NCBI GenBank assembly: GCA_044229975.1
Contig: JBGARZ010000003.1
Span: 32,001 to 96,000, forward strand
Reading direction: 5' to 3'
Origin: Polyangiales bacterium
Lineage (GTDB): Bacteria; Myxococcota_A; Polyangia; Polyangiales; Ga0077539
Length of the DNA stretch: 64,000 bases
The notes under the pieces were generated by a model that was not told where the DNA came from, did not search any database, and saw only the letters and a program-made list of their open reading frames with translations. Each line of letters begins with the position of its first letter. The stretch's first letter is position 1. Position numbers and translations under genes: made by a program. Positions 53,039-59,846 of this stretch are shown piece by piece.

Positions 53039-54154
53039 TCAGTGCGGAGCGCCGCCGGCGCCCTGCTGCTGCATCTGGCGGCGGATCTGCTCCATGAGCT
53101 CCGGGGGAATCTGCGGCGACCCGCCAGGGCCACCAGCGGGCATTCCCATCGGAGGCGCCGCCGGGGCAGCCGCGGGCGCCGACGCGTCAGCCGCCGTCCC
53201 ACCGTCCACCGGGAGCGGCGTCTGGAAGGCCGTGACGGCGGGGTTGATCGCCTCGACCGCGGCGCGCGTCACGACGAAGATGGTGTCGGTGCCCTCGCGC
53301 TGCGCGAAGGTCTCGTTGTCGCCGCTGTTGTTGCCGAGGCGCACGGTGACGGTCTGCACCGCCGCGTCGCCGCCGCCAGTGGTGAGCGTCACGCGGGGGC
53401 TGTCGGCCCCGACGCCGCTCGCGGTGCCTTCGGGCGCGAAGTCCGTCGCCTGGAGCCCGCTGAGCGAGCTCACCAGCGAGTCGATGCGCGCCGTGTCGAG
53501 CCGCGCGACCGTGGTGCCCGCCGCGGCGGTCCACGTGTTGTCGACGCGGTTGAAGTGGAAGGTGCCGTTGCGGTTGACCCACTCCACGGACTGAACGCCG
53601 CTGAGACGCGTGATCTGACGATCGCGCCAGTCGCGCGCCGAGCGCTGCACCGCCGACGAGATCGACTGGTCGACCTCGAAGGTCTCCGGCCGCGACGGGA
53701 CGCGCACCGCCGTGCCGCCCCCGACGCCCGTCCCGACGAAGACGTCGACCACGGTGCTCGCGCCGCTCTTGAGCGTCACCCGCACCGCGTGCTCGTCGTC
53801 CACCTCGAAGGTCGCGTGGCTGCTCGGGTTGCGCCCGCGCACCATGGTGACCTTCATGTCCGCGAAGTTGCGCACCAGGTCTTCGACCGTGGTGCCCGCC
53901 GTCGGGCCGCGGCCCGGCGCCGTCATGATCCAGTGACCATCGCGCTTCTCCAGCTCGATGACGCGCTGGTTCTCGGGGCCCGTCTGACGCCGTAGCGTGA
54001 GGTGATCGACCCGGGCCGCGTCGATGCGCGACCAGGGGTTGCTCACCGGCGCCACGCTGCTCGAATCCGCCGGCTGGGCGCGATAGACGTAGGCCGTCGC
54101 GCCCCCCAGCACCACCAGCACACCGAGCCCGATTCCAATGCCCTTGGAGTTCAT
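53039..54154 (-). CDS. DUF4340-domain membrane-anchored periplasmic protein
   Basis: N-terminal TM helix, duplicated domain, WRDRQI motif; downstream of a GldG-like gene. Confidence 0.75.
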   Translation of the reverse strand: MNSKGIGIGLGVLVVLGGATAYVYRAQPADSSSVAPVSNPWSRIDAARVDHLTLRRQTGPENQRVIELEKRDGHWIMTAPGRGPTAGTTVEDLVRNFADMKVTMVRGRNPSSHATFEVDDEHAVRVTLKSGASTVVDVFVGTGVGGGTAVRVPSRPETFEVDQSISSAVQRSARDWRDRQITRLSGVQSVEWVNRNGTFHFNRVDNTWTAAAGTTVARLDTARIDSLVSSLSGLQATDFAPEGTASGVGADSPRVTLTTGGGDAAVQTVTVRLGNNSGDNETFAQREGTDTIFVVTRAAVEAINPAVTAFQTPLPVDGGTAADASAPAAAPAAPPMGMPAGGPGGSPQIPPELMEQIRRQMQQQGAGGAPH

Positions 54155-54185
54155 TCGCTGTCTTCTTGTCTCTGGTGTCTGACTA

Positions 54186-55826
54186 CTAGAGGGTCATCTC
54201 GGCGCGCTTGCGGGCGCGCAGGGACATCAGCACCACGCCCAGCACCCCGACGAGGAGCGGCAGGCCCACGATGCTGCCCCACTTGAAGAGCTGCTTCTTG
54301 GTGTCGGTCACCGCCTGGAGGCTCGGCTCCGAGACGTCCTTCGCGCGAACCGCGAGGAGGTCGGGGTCCTGGCTCAGCCAGTCGAAGACGTTGAGCAGCA
54401 TCTGCACGTTGGTCGGCATGCCGTTTTGCACCGGCGCGAGCGCGCGGAGCTGGTCGATGTGAAACGCCTTGCCCGTGCCCACGATGAGCAGCCGCGCCGG
54501 GTGCTCGCGCGTGGCGTGCGCCGGCGGGTGGTCGGTGTCGTTGCCCGCGAAGGCGCTGCGGAGCTGGCCTTCGAGCGCCGCCGCGACGACGTACGAGCCG
54601 CGCGCGTTGCCGAAGAGCTGCCGACGGTTCTGGAGGATCTCCAGGGCGTCGAGCTCGAAGTTGTCGCGGCGCAGCACCGAGCGCTCGCTGGTGCGGCCGA
54701 TCTCCGTGTAGACCGTCCCGTTTTCGCGGGCGCGACCGTTGTTGATGGTCAGCGTCGACACGAAGGGCAGGATCACGCCCGGCAGGCGGAACACCGCCGG
54801 ATGCGACGTGTCGATGCCGGGGCCGCCGGCCTCACGCCGCTCGAGGAGCGCGGGGAAGGCGTGCATCGGGATGCGCGCGCGGCCCTGCTCGATCTCCTCG
54901 ATCGCGTCGGCGCCCTGGAAGTCGAGCACCACGTCGGGGTTGAGCGTGACGCCGTAACCTTCGAGGAGACCGTTGAGGCCGTGCTCGGCCCGCGCCGCGG
55001 TGGGCCGCGTGTCGGTGCCGGTCACGTTGACGCCGCCCGCGAAGATCGCGACCGAGCCGCCGCGCATGAGGTACGCGTTGATGCGGCGCAGCTCGCGCTC
55101 GGGGATGGCGCGCGTCGGGCCCATGATGACGAGGCCCTTGATGTCGGTGGGGATGTCGTCCTCGCCGCCGTGCAGGTCGACCGTGCGGGTGGTGTACCCG
55201 AGGTGGGCCTCCTGCATGATGCGCGAGAGGTACGGCAGCGCCTGCTCGGGCGAGCCCTCGTCGTGGCCCGTGAGGAAGCCGATGGCCCGCTCGGGGTCGA
55301 TCATCTTCTTCACGATGGAGGTGATCTGGTACTCCATGCCCTCGGCGCCGGGGTTGACGAAGGGGATCTGCTCCGTCGAGCGGAGGTACGAGAAGGTCAC
55401 GCAGCGGTAGACCTCGGCGAGGTTCGCCTGGTCGGACTGCGTGTTGACCGTCTGGAGCATGCGCTTGGTGCAGCTCGCCCCCTCGGCCGCGCGCTTGCGC
55501 TCGTCGTTGTCGGTGCGAACCCAGCGCACCACGAGGCGGCCGCGGGCGGCGGCCACGTACTCGTCGAGCTGCTCGCGGAGGAGCCGCTCGTCGTCGTTGG
55601 CCGGCGCGGGCTGGTCGGGGGTCCAGTAGACCGTGATGGTGAGGTTGTCGGTGAGGCGTCCGAGCGTGCGCTTGGTGCCCTGCGACAGCGAGTACAGCCC
55701 GCGCTTCGTGAGATCGATGCGGAGGTGCAGGGCCTTCACGGCGATGATGTTGAGGAGCACCACCGCGACGATGGCGATGGCGACGAAGATCCCGGTCTGG
55801 GCGCGGGCCTGGCTACGACGTTCCAT
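54186..55826 (-). CDS. GldG-family ABC auxiliary component (GIFT domain)
   Basis: RIDLTKRGLYSLSQGT, EYQITS, IGFLTGHDE, YLMRGG, LNVFDWL; N- and C-terminal TM helices. Confidence 0.88.
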   Translation of the reverse strand: MERRSQARAQTGIFVAIAIVAVVLLNIIAVKALHLRIDLTKRGLYSLSQGTKRTLGRLTDNLTITVYWTPDQPAPANDDERLLREQLDEYVAAARGRLVVRWVRTDNDERKRAAEGASCTKRMLQTVNTQSDQANLAEVYRCVTFSYLRSTEQIPFVNPGAEGMEYQITSIVKKMIDPERAIGFLTGHDEGSPEQALPYLSRIMQEAHLGYTTRTVDLHGGEDDIPTDIKGLVIMGPTRAIPERELRRINAYLMRGGSVAIFAGGVNVTGTDTRPTAARAEHGLNGLLEGYGVTLNPDVVLDFQGADAIEEIEQGRARIPMHAFPALLERREAGGPGIDTSHPAVFRLPGVILPFVSTLTINNGRARENGTVYTEIGRTSERSVLRRDNFELDALEILQNRRQLFGNARGSYVVAAALEGQLRSAFAGNDTDHPPAHATREHPARLLIVGTGKAFHIDQLRALAPVQNGMPTNVQMLLNVFDWLSQDPDLLAVRAKDVSEPSLQAVTDTKKQLFKWGSIVGLPLLVGVLGVVLMSLRARKRAEMTL

Positions 55827-55829
55827 GGA

Positions 55830-56600
55830 TCAGCTCCACCGCCGGCTGTCGAGTGAGCGCGCGGTCGCCAGCAGGCAGACGAAGATCACGCTGCCGAAGT
55901 AGATGATGTTGCGGGCGTCGAGGACGCCGCGGGAGATGCTCGCGAAGTGGTAGTCGGGGCAGAGGTACTCGATCACCGAGGCCGCGCCGCCGAAGAAGAT
56001 CAGCGCCTTGTTCATGAGGAAGAACACCGCGCCGACGATGAAGCTCACGAAGAACGCCGTGATCTGGTCCTTGGTGTAGGACGAGACCATGACGCCGAAG
56101 GAGACGTAGGCGCCGCCGCCGAGCAGCAGGCCGAGGTAGCCGCCCGCGACGGGGCCCCAATCGAGCTCGCCCATGCGCGAGATGATGAGCGGGTAGCTGA
56201 AGGTCGCGACGATGCAGACCGCGAGCAGGCCGAGGGCGCCGAGGTACTTCCCGAGGATGACCTCCCAGTCCCGCACGGGCTGGGTGATGAGCATCTCCAG
56301 GGTGCCGGTGCGCGACTCCTCCGCGAAGGTGCGCATCGCGATGGCGGGCGAGATGAGCGGCAGCAGCCACGAGATGCTGTTGAACATCGGCTGCAGCGTC
56401 ACCTTCCCCAGCGTCAGGAACGCGAAGGGGATGAAGAACAGGAAGCCCACCAGCAGCAGGAACATCCCGATCACGATGTAGCCGAGCGGAGACGAGAAGT
56501 ACGAGACAAACTCCCGTCGCGCGATGGCGAGGGTGTTGCCGATGGGCGTCCCGATGGACCCGCGGGTCAGCGGGGCCGCCTTGGTTTCCGTGTCAGACAT
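55830..56600 (-). CDS. ABC-2 permease, GldF-like
   Basis: IARREFVSYFSSPLGY, MRTFAEESRTGTLEML.T.PV, VILGKYLG. Confidence 0.9.
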   Translation of the reverse strand: MSDTETKAAPLTRGSIGTPIGNTLAIARREFVSYFSSPLGYIVIGMFLLLVGFLFFIPFAFLTLGKVTLQPMFNSISWLLPLISPAIAMRTFAEESRTGTLEMLITQPVRDWEVILGKYLGALGLLAVCIVATFSYPLIISRMGELDWGPVAGGYLGLLLGGGAYVSFGVMVSSYTKDQITAFFVSFIVGAVFFLMNKALIFFGGAASVIEYLCPDYHFASISRGVLDARNIIYFGSVIFVCLLATARSLDSRRWS

Positions 56601-57633
56601 CGTTCGATGACTCCTTCGTCGCAGTCGCAGTCGCCGCCGGGGCCTTCGTGCCCGCGTTGCGACGCGGGGCTCCCTCACCCACCGTCAGCTGCCGGAAGAC
56701 CTCCTCCAACTGCACCGCCTCGCGGCGCAGCTCCAGCAGGTCCCACTTGTTGTCGACCGCCATGCGGAAGAACTCCCGGCGGTGGTCGCTGGAGCCCTTC
56801 ACGCTCACCTCGACCGTCGTCGCCTTCTCGTCGCTCGGCAGCTCCTTCACGGTACCGCCCGACACCACGCGCTTCACGGCGTCGACCACCGCGGCGGACT
56901 TCCCGTCGTCCTTGCCGGCGTCGACGGTGAGCACGTACTTCACGCTGCCGCTCTTGGCCGCGAGGTCGCCCGGCGCGCCGTCGGCCACGACCTTGCCGCG
57001 GTTGACGATGAGCACCCGCGCACAGGCCTCCTTCACTTCCGCGAGGTCGTGCGTGGAGAGCATGATCGTGCGCGTCTTGCCGATCTCCTTGATGTACGAG
57101 ATGACCTCGGCGCTCTCGTTGGGGTCGAGGTCGGCCGTGGGCTCGTCGAGGATGAGAATGGCCGGGTCGTGGATGAGCGCCTGGGCGAGACCCACGCGCT
57201 GACGATAGCCGTACGAGAGCTCGTTGATGGTCTTGGCGAGCACGTCCTTGAGCCCGCAGATCTCGACCACCTCCTTGATCTTCGCGCGGCGCTTGTCCTT
57301 CGCGATGGCGCGGAGCTCGGCGGCGAAGTCGAGGTACTCCACCACGCCCATCTCGGGGTACAGCGACGCGCGCTGCGGGAGGTACCCGATCATCGAGCGC
57401 ACCGAGAGCGGGTCGTCGAAGACGTCGAACCCGCCCACCTTCGCCGTCCCCTCGGTCGGCGAGATGAAGCACGTCAGGATCTTCATCGTCGTGCTCTTGC
57501 CCGCCCCGTTGGGACCGAGGAAGCCCACCACCTCGCCCCGGCGGATCTCGAAGCTCATCCGGTCGACGGCGCGTTGCGCGCCATAGACCTTGGACAGCTC
57601 CCGGGTCTCGATCATCACGTCACTGGTCGCCAT
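56593..57633 (-). CDS. ABC transporter ATP-binding protein, GldA-like
   Basis: GPNGAGKSTT, LSYGYRQRVGLAQA, LILDEPT. Confidence 0.92.
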   Translation of the reverse strand: MATSDVMIETRELSKVYGAQRAVDRMSFEIRRGEVVGFLGPNGAGKSTTMKILTCFISPTEGTAKVGGFDVFDDPLSVRSMIGYLPQRASLYPEMGVVEYLDFAAELRAIAKDKRRAKIKEVVEICGLKDVLAKTINELSYGYRQRVGLAQALIHDPAILILDEPTADLDPNESAEVISYIKEIGKTRTIMLSTHDLAEVKEACARVLIVNRGKVVADGAPGDLAAKSGSVKYVLTVDAGKDDGKSAAVVDAVKRVVSGGTVKELPSDEKATTVEVSVKGSSDHRREFFRMAVDNKWDLLELRREAVQLEEVFRQLTVGEGAPRRNAGTKAPAATATATKESSNDV

Positions 57634-58279: not shown

Positions 58280-59425
58280 ATGGACTCCACACGCCGTCAC
58301 CTGCTGACGCTCGGTCTCGGCGCCGTCACCCTCGGCGCCGCCCGCGCCGCCGCGCAGCCCATCCCGTACGTCAACGGTGCTGTCCCCGCGAACCCCTTCG
58401 GCGAAGACCCACCCGCGCGACCCGCCGCCGCCGACGCGGGGACGCTCACGACGCCCGACGCCACCGTCGACGCTGGCGCCGCGCCCGATGTCCCTGCCCC
58501 CGATGTCCCTGCCCCCGATGTACCCGCGCCGACACCCGTCGTCGCAGTCACCGAACCGACCCCGCCTGCGGTGCCGCCCAACCCCTTCGAGTCATCGATC
58601 CGTCGCTACGGCGAGCTCCCCGAGGAGGACATCGTCCGCGCTCTGACCACGGGCTCCATCCTGTCGGCGCGCAACGTCGGCAACACCTCGGTCAATCTCC
58701 GCTGCGACCTCGACGGGCCCATCGATGGGGCGTTCAAGCCCGCCGAGACGCGGCACGTCGACCACTGGCGCGCCGAGATTGGCGCCTTCCGCGTGGCGCA
58801 GCTCCTCGGCCTCGACCGCGTGCCGCCCGCCGTCTTCCGACGCGTCGCCCGCACCGAGCTCGCGGGCGTCGAGGCGGGGCGTCTCCTCTTCCGCGACGGC
58901 TGGGCCCGCGGCGCGATGATCTACTGGGTCCCGGTGCTGCGCCGCGCCGGCATCTTCTCGGGCGCCGCGCTCACCGAATGGACCAACCACCTCGTGGTCG
59001 GCGTCGACATCCCGCCCGACGGCCGACGCCGCGCCGAGGAGATCTCCACCCTCATCTCCTACGACTTCATCATCGGCAACTGGGACCGCTGGCACGGCAC
59101 CAACACCCTCGTCGATGCCCGCGGGCAGCTCTGCTACCGCGACAACAACGGCGGCTTCCTCGAACCCATGCCCCGCTGGAAGATGGAAATCATCTTCTCG
59201 TTCTTGCAGCGCTCGCAGCGCTTCTCGCGCACCTTCGTCGAGCACGTGCGCGCCATGTCCCTCGCGGGCCTGCGCCGCGCCATCGCCGCCGACGCCGACG
59301 GCCGGGAGCCGCTGCTCAACGAGGTCCAGCTCCGCGCCATGGTGCGACGGCGCGCGACGTACCTCGAATACGTCGACGCCCTCGTCGGCATCCATGGCGC
59401 CGCCGAAGTGCTCTGCTTCGACTGA
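58280..59425 (+). CDS. Tat-exported atypical kinase-fold protein, FAM20C/Four-jointed-like
   Basis: TRRHLL twin-Arg signal; AFKP, AEIGAFRVAQLLGLDRVPP, YDFIIGNWDRW, YRDNNGGF. Confidence 0.72.
   Translation: MDSTRRHLLTLGLGAVTLGAARAAAQPIPYVNGAVPANPFGEDPPARPAAADAGTLTTPDATVDAGAAPDVPAPDVPAPDVPAPTPVVAVTEPTPPAVPPNPFESSIRRYGELPEEDIVRALTTGSILSARNVGNTSVNLRCDLDGPIDGAFKPAETRHVDHWRAEIGAFRVAQLLGLDRVPPAVFRRVARTELAGVEAGRLLFRDGWARGAMIYWVPVLRRAGIFSGAALTEWTNHLVVGVDIPPDGRRRAEEISTLISYDFIIGNWDRWHGTNTLVDARGQLCYRDNNGGFLEPMPRWKMEIIFSFLQRSQRFSRTFVEHVRAMSLAGLRRAIAADADGREPLLNEVQLRAMVRRRATYLEYVDALVGIHGAAEVLCFD
58484..58528 (+). repeat. 15-bp tandem repeat x3 (CCCGATGTCCCTGCC) encoding PDVPA linker
   Basis: Two exact copies and one degenerate copy, read directly. 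Confidence 0.85.
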
Positions 59426-59429
59426 TGCC

Positions 59430-59846
59430 TCAGGCCACGAGTTGGCGAAGCTCGCCGCGGTGACGCTCGGCGTACACCGACAGCACGTCGAGGGCGTCGC
59501 GCATCTCGCTCGCGTCCATGTGCTCGACAGGAAACTCCACCGAGAGCACCACGTCGCCGTCTTCGTCGAGGGAGAAGCGGGCGAGCAGCATCTCGCCGTT
59601 GAGCCGCAGCAGCCGCGCGTACAGCTTCTCGGCCTTGTCGGCGTCGGCCGGCAGCCGGACGATGGGCAGCACCATCAGCCGACAGAAAGCCCCTTCGGCC
59701 TGGATCACCAGCGGAAAGGTCCCCCGCCGCGCCCGGAAGCTCGACCGCCAGGTGCGCTCGGAGAGCGAGATCACCGGCCACCCCAGCGCCTTCAGGTGGC
59801 CTTCGATCTTCGTGGCCGCCTGGGAGTCGGTCGTCGCGTCGCTCAT
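59430..59846 (-). CDS. YbjN/type III secretion chaperone-fold protein
   Basis: Small protein with LYARLLRLNGEMLLARFSLDEDGDVVL, the CesT/YbjN-type signature. Confidence 0.7.
   Translation of the reverse strand: MSDATTDSQAATKIEGHLKALGWPVISLSERTWRSSFRARRGTFPLVIQAEGAFCRLMVLPIVRLPADADKAEKLYARLLRLNGEMLLARFSLDEDGDVVLSVEFPVEHMDASEMRDALDVLSVYAERHRGELRQLVA

Follow-up and report, generated by a model that had tools for sequence, protein, structure and literature searches.

A FAM20-like kinase with an intact-looking active site and a predicted export signal, from an uncharacterised myxobacterial family

The window analysed here, a stretch of 64,000 nucleotides, is part of a genome of 10.0 Mb (71% GC, 93%-complete); the records of the closest named relatives carry the labels Myxococcales or Polyangiales. 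The gene under study starts with ATG and encodes 381 amino acids followed by a stop codon, and the four motifs that had been read from the letters (AFKP, AEIGAF...RVPP, NWDRW and RDNN) indeed occur in its product in that order. GC at the three codon positions (0.73, 0.52 and 0.91) follows the pattern expected for a real gene at this genomic GC content. For the kinase domain, the 36 pairs that can be formed from nine close orthologues have dN/dS ratios of 0.07-0.38; nine further pairs, each including one more distant orthologue, have ratios of 0.27-0.71, at a dS that is probably saturated; the gene and its family are under purifying selection. A promoter and terminator scan returned nothing for the kinase gene. 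One soil RNA run contained a relative's contig, differing at 72 positions over 818 bases, that also covers the convergent neighbor and is therefore not taken as proof of transcription. The kinase gene is flanked by a co-oriented thioesterase gene and by the convergent YbjN/CesT-like gene, and a divergent cluster of GldA/F/G-like ABC transporter genes adjoins (Table 1).

Table 1. Features of the kinase locus (window positions) and related genes elsewhere in the source genome (labelled positions)
Feature	Position	Strand	Basis or remark
Exported (predicted) FAM20-like kinase gene	58280..59425	+	ATG start, 381 aa plus stop
Predicted cleavable signal peptide, aa 1-25	58280..58354	+	sequence; export route inferred
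Twin Arg, aa 5-6	58292-58297	+	leader sequence
Pro/Ala-rich low-complexity linker, aa 26-105	58355..58594	+	sequence composition
P-x-N-P-F/Y motif, aa 36-40	58385-58399		within linker
15-bp tandem repeat	58484-58521		within linker
P-x-N-P-F/Y motif, aa 99-103	58574-58588		within linker
FAM20-fold kinase domain (predicted), aa 106-381 (276 aa)	58595..59422	+	AlphaFold2 model, Foldseek, VIA-align
Lys153, predicted ATP-binding beta3 lysine	58736..58738	+	aligned to FAM20C FKP lysine
Glu166, alphaC glutamate	58775..58777	+	alignment; Glu in 150/150 best representatives
Asp269, predicted catalytic base	59084..59086	+	equivalent to hydra Fam20 Asp299; Asp in 147/150 best representatives
Asp288, predicted metal-binding aspartate of DN motif	59141..59143	+	Asp in 149/150 best representatives
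YbjN/CesT-like chaperone-fold gene	59430-59846	-	convergent, 4 bases from kinase stop
GldA/GldF/GldG-like ABC transporter cluster and DUF4340 gene	53039-57633	-	below NCBIfam Gld cut-offs
Four other paralogues in the source genome	C35:62177-63100; C19:85403-86518; C23:253112-255493; C23:405352-406422		three lipoproteins and one Sec-type
Sole NTT-like gene of the source genome (about 1030 aa)	C32, L125:9015-12116		directly upstream of gene with Ser/Thr kinase-like start

The leader proceeds from S-T-R-R-H-L-L through a hydrophobic stretch to A-A-A, with a basic residue in the c-region and Q as the predicted first residue of the mature protein. The S/T-R-R-x-hydrophobic pattern recurs in 14 further close orthologues, that is, in 15 of the 16 closest proteins, which are kin and not independent. 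TatC is encoded in the source genome (E 3.5e-66); the Tat-signal models of Pfam and NCBIfam gave no match to the protein at E<=1. By our leader heuristic, 30 of the 7649 ORFs of the source genome are Tat-like, the kinase ORF among them. Gln is found at position +1 after most non-lipoprotein leaders of this branch, which suggests that the mature protein could be capped by pyroglutamate.

The linker of 80 residues is rich in Pro, Ala and Val (22 P, 16 A and 10 V) rather than in Pro and Asp (7 D), as the preliminary description had it. It includes a short tandem repeat and, in an otherwise variable sequence, two copies of the motif P-x-N-P-F/Y. This motif is present, often in 2-4 copies, in 50 of the 52 closest proteins, in none of the next 68 and in one of 144 other representatives; possibly, it is a binding motif specific for the sub-clade.

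The AlphaFold2 model of the domain that follows the linker has a pLDDT of 95.3 and a pTM of 0.93, and a Foldseek search with this model retrieved FAM20A first (E 7.5e-12), all listed rows to rank 28 being FAM20 chains. In a fold comparison with VIA-align that was exhaustive over 48,161 chains, hydra Fam20 (Z 22.2, rmsd 3.5, 264 residues) and zebrafish Fam20C (Z 22.1) were on top, and the lower matches included PI4KII (Z 17.4), CtkA (14.4), actin-fragmin kinase (12.5), HipA (12.0) and CotH (11.8). When the single domain was compared with PDB sequences, FAM20A was found with E 6.3e-6, and five of the six sequences at E<=10 were FAM20 proteins. A family profile of 49 domains matches human FAM20C end to end (E 2.7e-19) and hydra Fam20 with E 6.6e-13, and PI4K II only with E 0.085. 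Deeper bacterial branches are nearer to FAM20C: with a profile of eight sequences, the E value is 9.5e-32, and PI4KII is absent at E<=10. The likeness to FAM20 is beyond chance, and by sequence and by comparison of the predicted structure, the FAM20 kinases are the best matches, ahead of all other kinases.

With the Pfam Fam20C model (PF06702), the kinase protein alone scores 13.5 bits (E 0.059), below the gathering cut-off of 26.8 bits, which is passed by four of the 18 distant relatives scanned (best score, 64.6 bits); a search of the source genome and 14 control genomes with this model matched nowhere and is uninformative. One all-bacterial cluster of the ESM Atlas bears the automatic name Fam20 domain-containing. 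TIGR03843 (SCO1664 family) gave weak matches (E 1e-4 to 0.05) in four of seven family proteins. The CotH model PF08757 did not match the kinase protein at E<=1, nor was CotH found in the source genome at its 93% completeness. The FAM20-type fold proposed from the sequence is thus borne out by Foldseek and VIA-align, for a domain of about 276 rather than about 260 residues. The outcome that would have spoken against it, best matches to PI3/4-kinase- or HipA-like families with signal-less homologues, was examined as well: the top matches are FAM20 kinases, and the homologues carry export signals.

Conservation in the active site and the leader classes were tallied on the best 150 representatives at 50% identity, out of 474 clusters at E<=1e-30 and 3549 at E<=0.001. 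Of the 149 filled rows, 146 have K or R at the beta3 position, and of the 149 gap-free rows, 146 retain the full set of four catalytic residues: beta3 Lys/Arg, alphaC Glu, catalytic Asp and metal Asp. Five residues ahead of Glu166, Asp161 aligns with the ion-pair acid of FAM20 (Asp152 in hydra); the loop is short here, and the position is not conserved family-wide. Asp269 is followed by Arg and then by an aromatic residue in place of His301, with W, F or Y at +2 in 139 of the 150 representatives. A nearly invariant Asn, Asn275 in the window kinase, lies six residues past the catalytic Asp; FAM20 has Glu at +5, and this Glu of the catalytic loop binds metal. The Lys in the Gly-loop of FAM20C is replaced in the bacterial family, and the Cys-bearing insertion in the N-lobe of FAM20C and its long beta3-alphaC loop are missing, about 21 and 13 FAM20C residues, respectively, being without counterpart in the profile. 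In 79 of the 150 domains, there is no Cys whatever. The catalytic set, which the preliminary description had taken to be intact, is intact by sequence, with K153, E166, D269 and D288 aligned to FAM20, and kinase activity is predicted.

The acceptor side is less well preserved. According to a passage in PMC5865150, the Gal-Xyl pocket of hydra Fam20 is made up of Thr114, Gln115, Tyr148-Tyr151, Tyr214, Tyr253, His301 and Lys321. In the bacterial kinase, Thr114 is kept, Gln115 is replaced by Ser (as mapped through FAM20C), His301 by Trp and Lys321 by Gly, and the loop and the insertion that bear the tyrosine platform are absent or shortened. Given these three replacements and the missing platform, the pocket is not kept.

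Of 301 Myxococcota genomes, 88 contain a match to the family profile; apart from the source genome, these are 37 of the 48 in its order, seven of 10 in the rest of its class and 43 of the 242 outside that class. In many Myxococcota families searched, there was no match (e.g., 0/23, 0/18 and 0/14), and the kinase family is found in genomes as small as 1.8-4.5 Mb. Among the 80 named loci that were kept of 123 relatives found, Labilithrix luteola DSM 27648, with one copy seen at locus L063, is the only cultured strain. Among the matches listed in word-index and representative searches, no protein was labelled as eukaryotic, and 19 pattern matches in viral contigs included no relative. One homologue (L079:4597-6819) is split over two frames, which may reflect an assembly error or a broken gene.

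The source genome encodes five paralogues, of which, with leaders read by eye, three have a lipobox Cys, one is of the Sec type and the window kinase is Tat-like. Two of the other four paralogues carry active-site motif variants, F/Y-D-R-W-N and G-W-F. Among the best 150 representatives, 75 have a lipoprotein leader (lipobox), 40 a Sec-type leader, none a Tat-like one and 14 none; 21 are too short to score. On the 7649 ORFs of the source genome, the heuristic yields 12% lipoprotein, 35% Sec-like and 0.4% Tat-like leaders, and on internal control windows 1.7%, 29% and 0.2%, respectively. A lipobox is present in 58% of the scorable family rows vs 12% of ORF starts in the source genome and 1.7% of internal windows, so that the excess of lipoproteins is solid; because 29% of the internal windows pass as Sec-type, that class is weak by itself and relies on inspection. 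Of the 120 closest proteins, 15 have a Tat-like leader, and every one of these belongs to the nearest 16. In a quick ML tree, calculated without bootstrap from 105 domains after exclusion of one frameshifted locus and labelled by eye, the Tat-like leaders have two origins, nested in Sec-type clades, and the five leader labels change 12 times. Tat export with pre-loaded ATP was considered as the mechanism of the family and rejected, given the zero of 150 representatives and the two separate Tat-like clades among Sec-type ones.

Judging from these leaders, the rule for the family appears to be the location outside the cytoplasm, with routes that change and with Tat as a local detail of the sub-clade. 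The export proposed in the preliminary description is accordingly upheld as a prediction, by the leader of the window kinase and by the export signals of its homologues; secretion by Tat agrees with the leader and the presence of TatC in this genome and does not extend to the family, which is mostly of lipoprotein or Sec type. Some distant members (L086, L087, L099 and L104) show a zinc ribbon, a long linker, a hydrophobic segment, TPR and the kinase in this order (the zinc-ribbon matches are weak, with none for L086), a layout in which the kinase would again sit outside. In another distant member (L098), the kinase is fused to an FGE-sulfatase-like domain. A second sub-family (L105-L119) has an insertion close to the C-lobe and is found upstream of the same two genes, agmatine deiminase-like and nitrilase-type amidase-like by eye, in 13 of 20 loci.

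A survey of 85 loci revealed neighbors that differ between the sub-clades. The most widely shared specific neighbor is the YbjN/CesT-like gene, found in 20 of the 85 loci and three sub-clades, in convergent orientation in 17; the thioesterase and the Gld-like ABC transporter are syntenic with the kinase in 9-10 loci of close orthologues, an alpha/beta hydrolase occurs in 22 loci and a CcmB-like gene in eight, and a GT2 family gene lies 5-6 genes off in nine loci, all of one clade. Conservation of these neighbors is confined to the sub-clades, and they resemble housekeeping genes. Across the sub-clades, the 85 loci show no consistent linkage of the kinase to a substrate, a phosphatase, an immunity gene, a secretion-system partner or an ATP transporter. 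An operon or dedicated system was rejected on this basis, and the phosphorylation 'system' of the preliminary description found no counterpart in the gene neighborhoods, with no substrate, phosphatase or ATP-transport gene linked across sub-clades.

We also considered an ATP/ADP translocase of the NTT type as the ATP supply, which was not supported by co-occurrence or linkage. PF03219 is found in 123 of the 301 genomes, namely in 50 of 88 with the kinase and in 73 of 213 without it, the related genomes not being independent. This model missed the source genome, where a custom profile found one unlinked NTT-like gene. An NTT-like gene is present in nine of 20 loci of other sub-families, these nine having been picked for that proximity and eight of them coming from one family; in these eight loci, the transporter lies within about 15 kb of a kinase of the second sub-family. 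As for possible substrates, S-x-E sites of the FAM20C type show no enrichment in proteins with predicted export, at 2.2-2.7 per 1000 aa vs 3.2 in the rest, and this candidate was dropped. The motifs D-S/T-G and D-A-G are about two to three times more common in the predicted lipoproteins of the source genome than in leaderless ORFs, and Thr is 1.4 times as frequent; it is possible that lipoprotein linkers serve as modification sites.

The gene can be described as encoding a real, FAM20-like kinase, intact-looking by its sequence and predicted to be exported, of an uncharacterised myxobacterial family. Because the catalytic residues are in place and an export signal is predicted, the protein is likely to act outside the cytoplasm and to phosphorylate molecules of the cell's own envelope. 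The reading that we favor, although we would not quite bet on it, is an ATP- and metal-dependent kinase that works in the periplasm on envelope proteins of the cell itself, most likely at Ser/Thr. The window kinase would leave the cytoplasm, in its sub-clade likely by Tat, and cleavage of the leader would place the domain on a flexible linker in the periplasm. There, ATP would be bound through Lys153 and Glu166 and a divalent metal through Asp288, with Asp269 acting as the base, and the five paralogues, three lipid-anchored and two released, might split substrates or locations among them. The stable housekeeping neighbors within each sub-clade and the dN/dS well below 1 are in keeping with a house function rather than with a polymorphic weapon, and the sugar pocket of FAM20B not being kept is suggestive of an open acceptor site. 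CotH, as stated in part of PMC12189002, already provides an example of a Fam20-like protein kinase in bacteria. The ATP would have to be drawn from the small pool that has been reported for the periplasm of Gram-negative bacteria, and the ATP source is the weak link of the periplasmic-kinase reading: in the relevant passages of PMC7432876, E. coli given external ATP has a periplasmic ATP content of 24 +/- 3 uM per 10^10 cells, and this ATP is described as rapidly hydrolysed and without a known exporter. Also against an own-envelope protein kinase are the lack of a linked substrate or ATP transporter in the 85 loci, the lack of S-x-E enrichment, the unconserved position of Asp161, the spacing of the Asn and the replaced Gly-loop Lys.

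The same exported enzyme might instead be a FAM20B-like glycan kinase whose acceptor is a sugar on envelope glycoproteins, LPS/O-antigen or exopolysaccharide, with the phosphate serving as a mark of maturation or quality control; we regard this reading as unlikely while giving it real weight. Hydra Fam20 ties for the top fold match, xylose kinase activity of the FAM20B type is described in a portion of PMC7948968 as the ancestral FAM20 function, and positions that line the sugar pocket are strongly conserved, namely Thr136, Ser137 and the aromatic residue at the His301 position (139 of the best 150 representatives), which could stack on a sugar. Nevertheless, Gln115, His301 and Lys321 are replaced, the tyrosine-platform loop and insertion are absent or shortened, and no glycan-synthesis locus is consistently adjacent, GT2 being confined to nine of 85 loci in one clade. 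The ATP problem would be solved if the kinase were an exo-enzyme on the surface or on outer-membrane vesicles that used the ATP of lysed or invaded prey to phosphorylate prey molecules, and Myxococcota are rich in predators. The family is mostly lipoprotein, H. pylori CtkA (Z 14.4) and Legionella MavQ (Z 10.5) share the fold, and vesicles are reported to hold ATP (PMC7432876, in part). We still hold action on prey to be quite improbable, considering that the family lacks a conserved immunity-like or secretion-system partner, is under purifying selection in stable synteny with housekeeping genes, and was not found in many Myxococcota families searched, yet is present in genomes of 1.8-4.5 Mb.

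Of the two readings to which we assign very little probability, one is a lipid kinase akin to PI4K type II, with a head group of an envelope lipid as acceptor. After FAM20, PI4KII ranks next by fold (Z 17.4), an Atlas cluster named as PI4-kinase family (PF00454 on 12% of the members) scores 0.91 with a distant member, and lipid substrates are proposed for families clustering with FAM20/CotH in the relevant part of a Legionella survey (PMC9758233). By sequence, however, PI4KII is far weaker (E 0.085 vs 2.7e-19, and no match at E<=10 when the profile of the deeper branches is used), and many members, the window kinase included, have no membrane anchor, which leaves a lipid target the least probable of all. 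Hardly more credible is nucleotide binding without turnover, as in a pseudokinase or sensor, or a brief cytoplasmic action that precedes Tat export: the family as a whole does not conserve the ion-pair acid of FAM20, the spacing in the catalytic loop differs, and Tat substrates fold in the cytoplasm, but 146 of 149 rows retain all four catalytic residues, and most members are Sec-type or lipoproteins, which cross unfolded, so that action before export cannot be the function of the family.

We know of no established process of protein or glycan phosphorylation in the Gram-negative periplasm. The route of ATP into the periplasm is called an open question in a passage of PMC7432876, and PMC13584744 contains, in the part available, a single mention of a 'periplasmic kinase RtkS'. 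A large, intact and, by prediction, consistently exported kinase family would be a direct handle on periplasmic phosphorylation, with a domain of 276 residues, few cysteines and L. luteola as a cultured carrier. Open-access full texts, which leave out most subscription papers, yielded no study of the bacterial kinase family. Myxococcota homologues of FAM20 have already been noticed in print, and the open-access literature yielded no description of their export, of their active site or of what they do: in an excerpt of bioRxiv 10.64898/2026.05.08.723234, FAM20B figures as one of up to five possible contributions of Myxococcota to endomembrane functions, with a signal 'not always unequivocal'. 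In the passages concerned, FAM20 is treated as conserved in animals, across which it occurs, with the FAM20B type ancestral (PMC7948968), and the FAM20 cluster is called eukaryote- or Metazoa-specific, four Legionella families clustering with FAM20/CotH (PMC9758233).

The bacterial family may bear on the question of where the animal FAM20 enzymes came from, and it would test the proposed contribution of Myxococcota to the endomembrane system. A bolder proposition, which we find doubtful but worth stating, is that this exported kinase family serves Myxococcota as the basis of a phosphorylation system in the periplasm and is also the bacterial stem of the eukaryotic Golgi FAM20 kinases. If so, extracytoplasmic phosphorylation would be older than the Golgi, the topology of the enzyme having been kept from the periplasm to the lumen of the secretory pathway, and the minimal bacterial version would reveal which features (insertion, dimer, sugar pocket) came later.

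Compared with the known kinases, the bacterial protein shares with FAM20C, the Golgi casein kinase (PDB 5yh3, 5yh0 and 4kqa), the fold (Z 18-22), the order of the motifs, the Lys/Glu/Asp/Asp set and the predicted extracytoplasmic location, at about 17-23% structural identity. In contrast to FAM20C, it lacks the Cys-bearing N-lobe insertion, and with it the insertion carrying the FAM20C dimer motif, its beta3-alphaC loop is short, and it has D-R-W for D-R-H and Asn at +6 for Glu at +5. The xylosylkinases FAM20B and hydra Fam20 (PDB 5xom and 5xoo) include the top fold match, and equivalents of Thr114, Asp152 and Asp299 are present, whereas those of Gln115, His301 and Lys321 are Ser, Trp and Gly, and there is no tyrosine platform. 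The pseudokinase FAM20A has Gln at the position of the ion-pair acid, where the bacterial kinase has Asp161. Four-jointed/FJX1, a Golgi protein kinase of the same branch, is likewise not known to carry the FAM20 insertion. PI4-kinase type II, the SCO1664 family (TIGR03843) and HipA belong to the same atypical-kinase superfamily and work on the cytoplasmic side; unlike the FAM20 kinases, they are much weaker matches, and the bacterial family carries export signals. The spore-coat kinase CotH (PDB 5jda) is, as one section of PMC12189002 has it, a bacterial atypical protein kinase similar to Fam20C, but is a distant fold match (Z 11.8, 7% identity), without a match to the Pfam CotH model. With both the Cys-bearing insertion and the FAM20B sugar pocket missing, the bacterial protein is best placed, on the modelled structure, in a sister branch of FAM20 rather than as a member, and we classify it as a stripped-down relative of FAM20A/B/C outside FAM20 proper.
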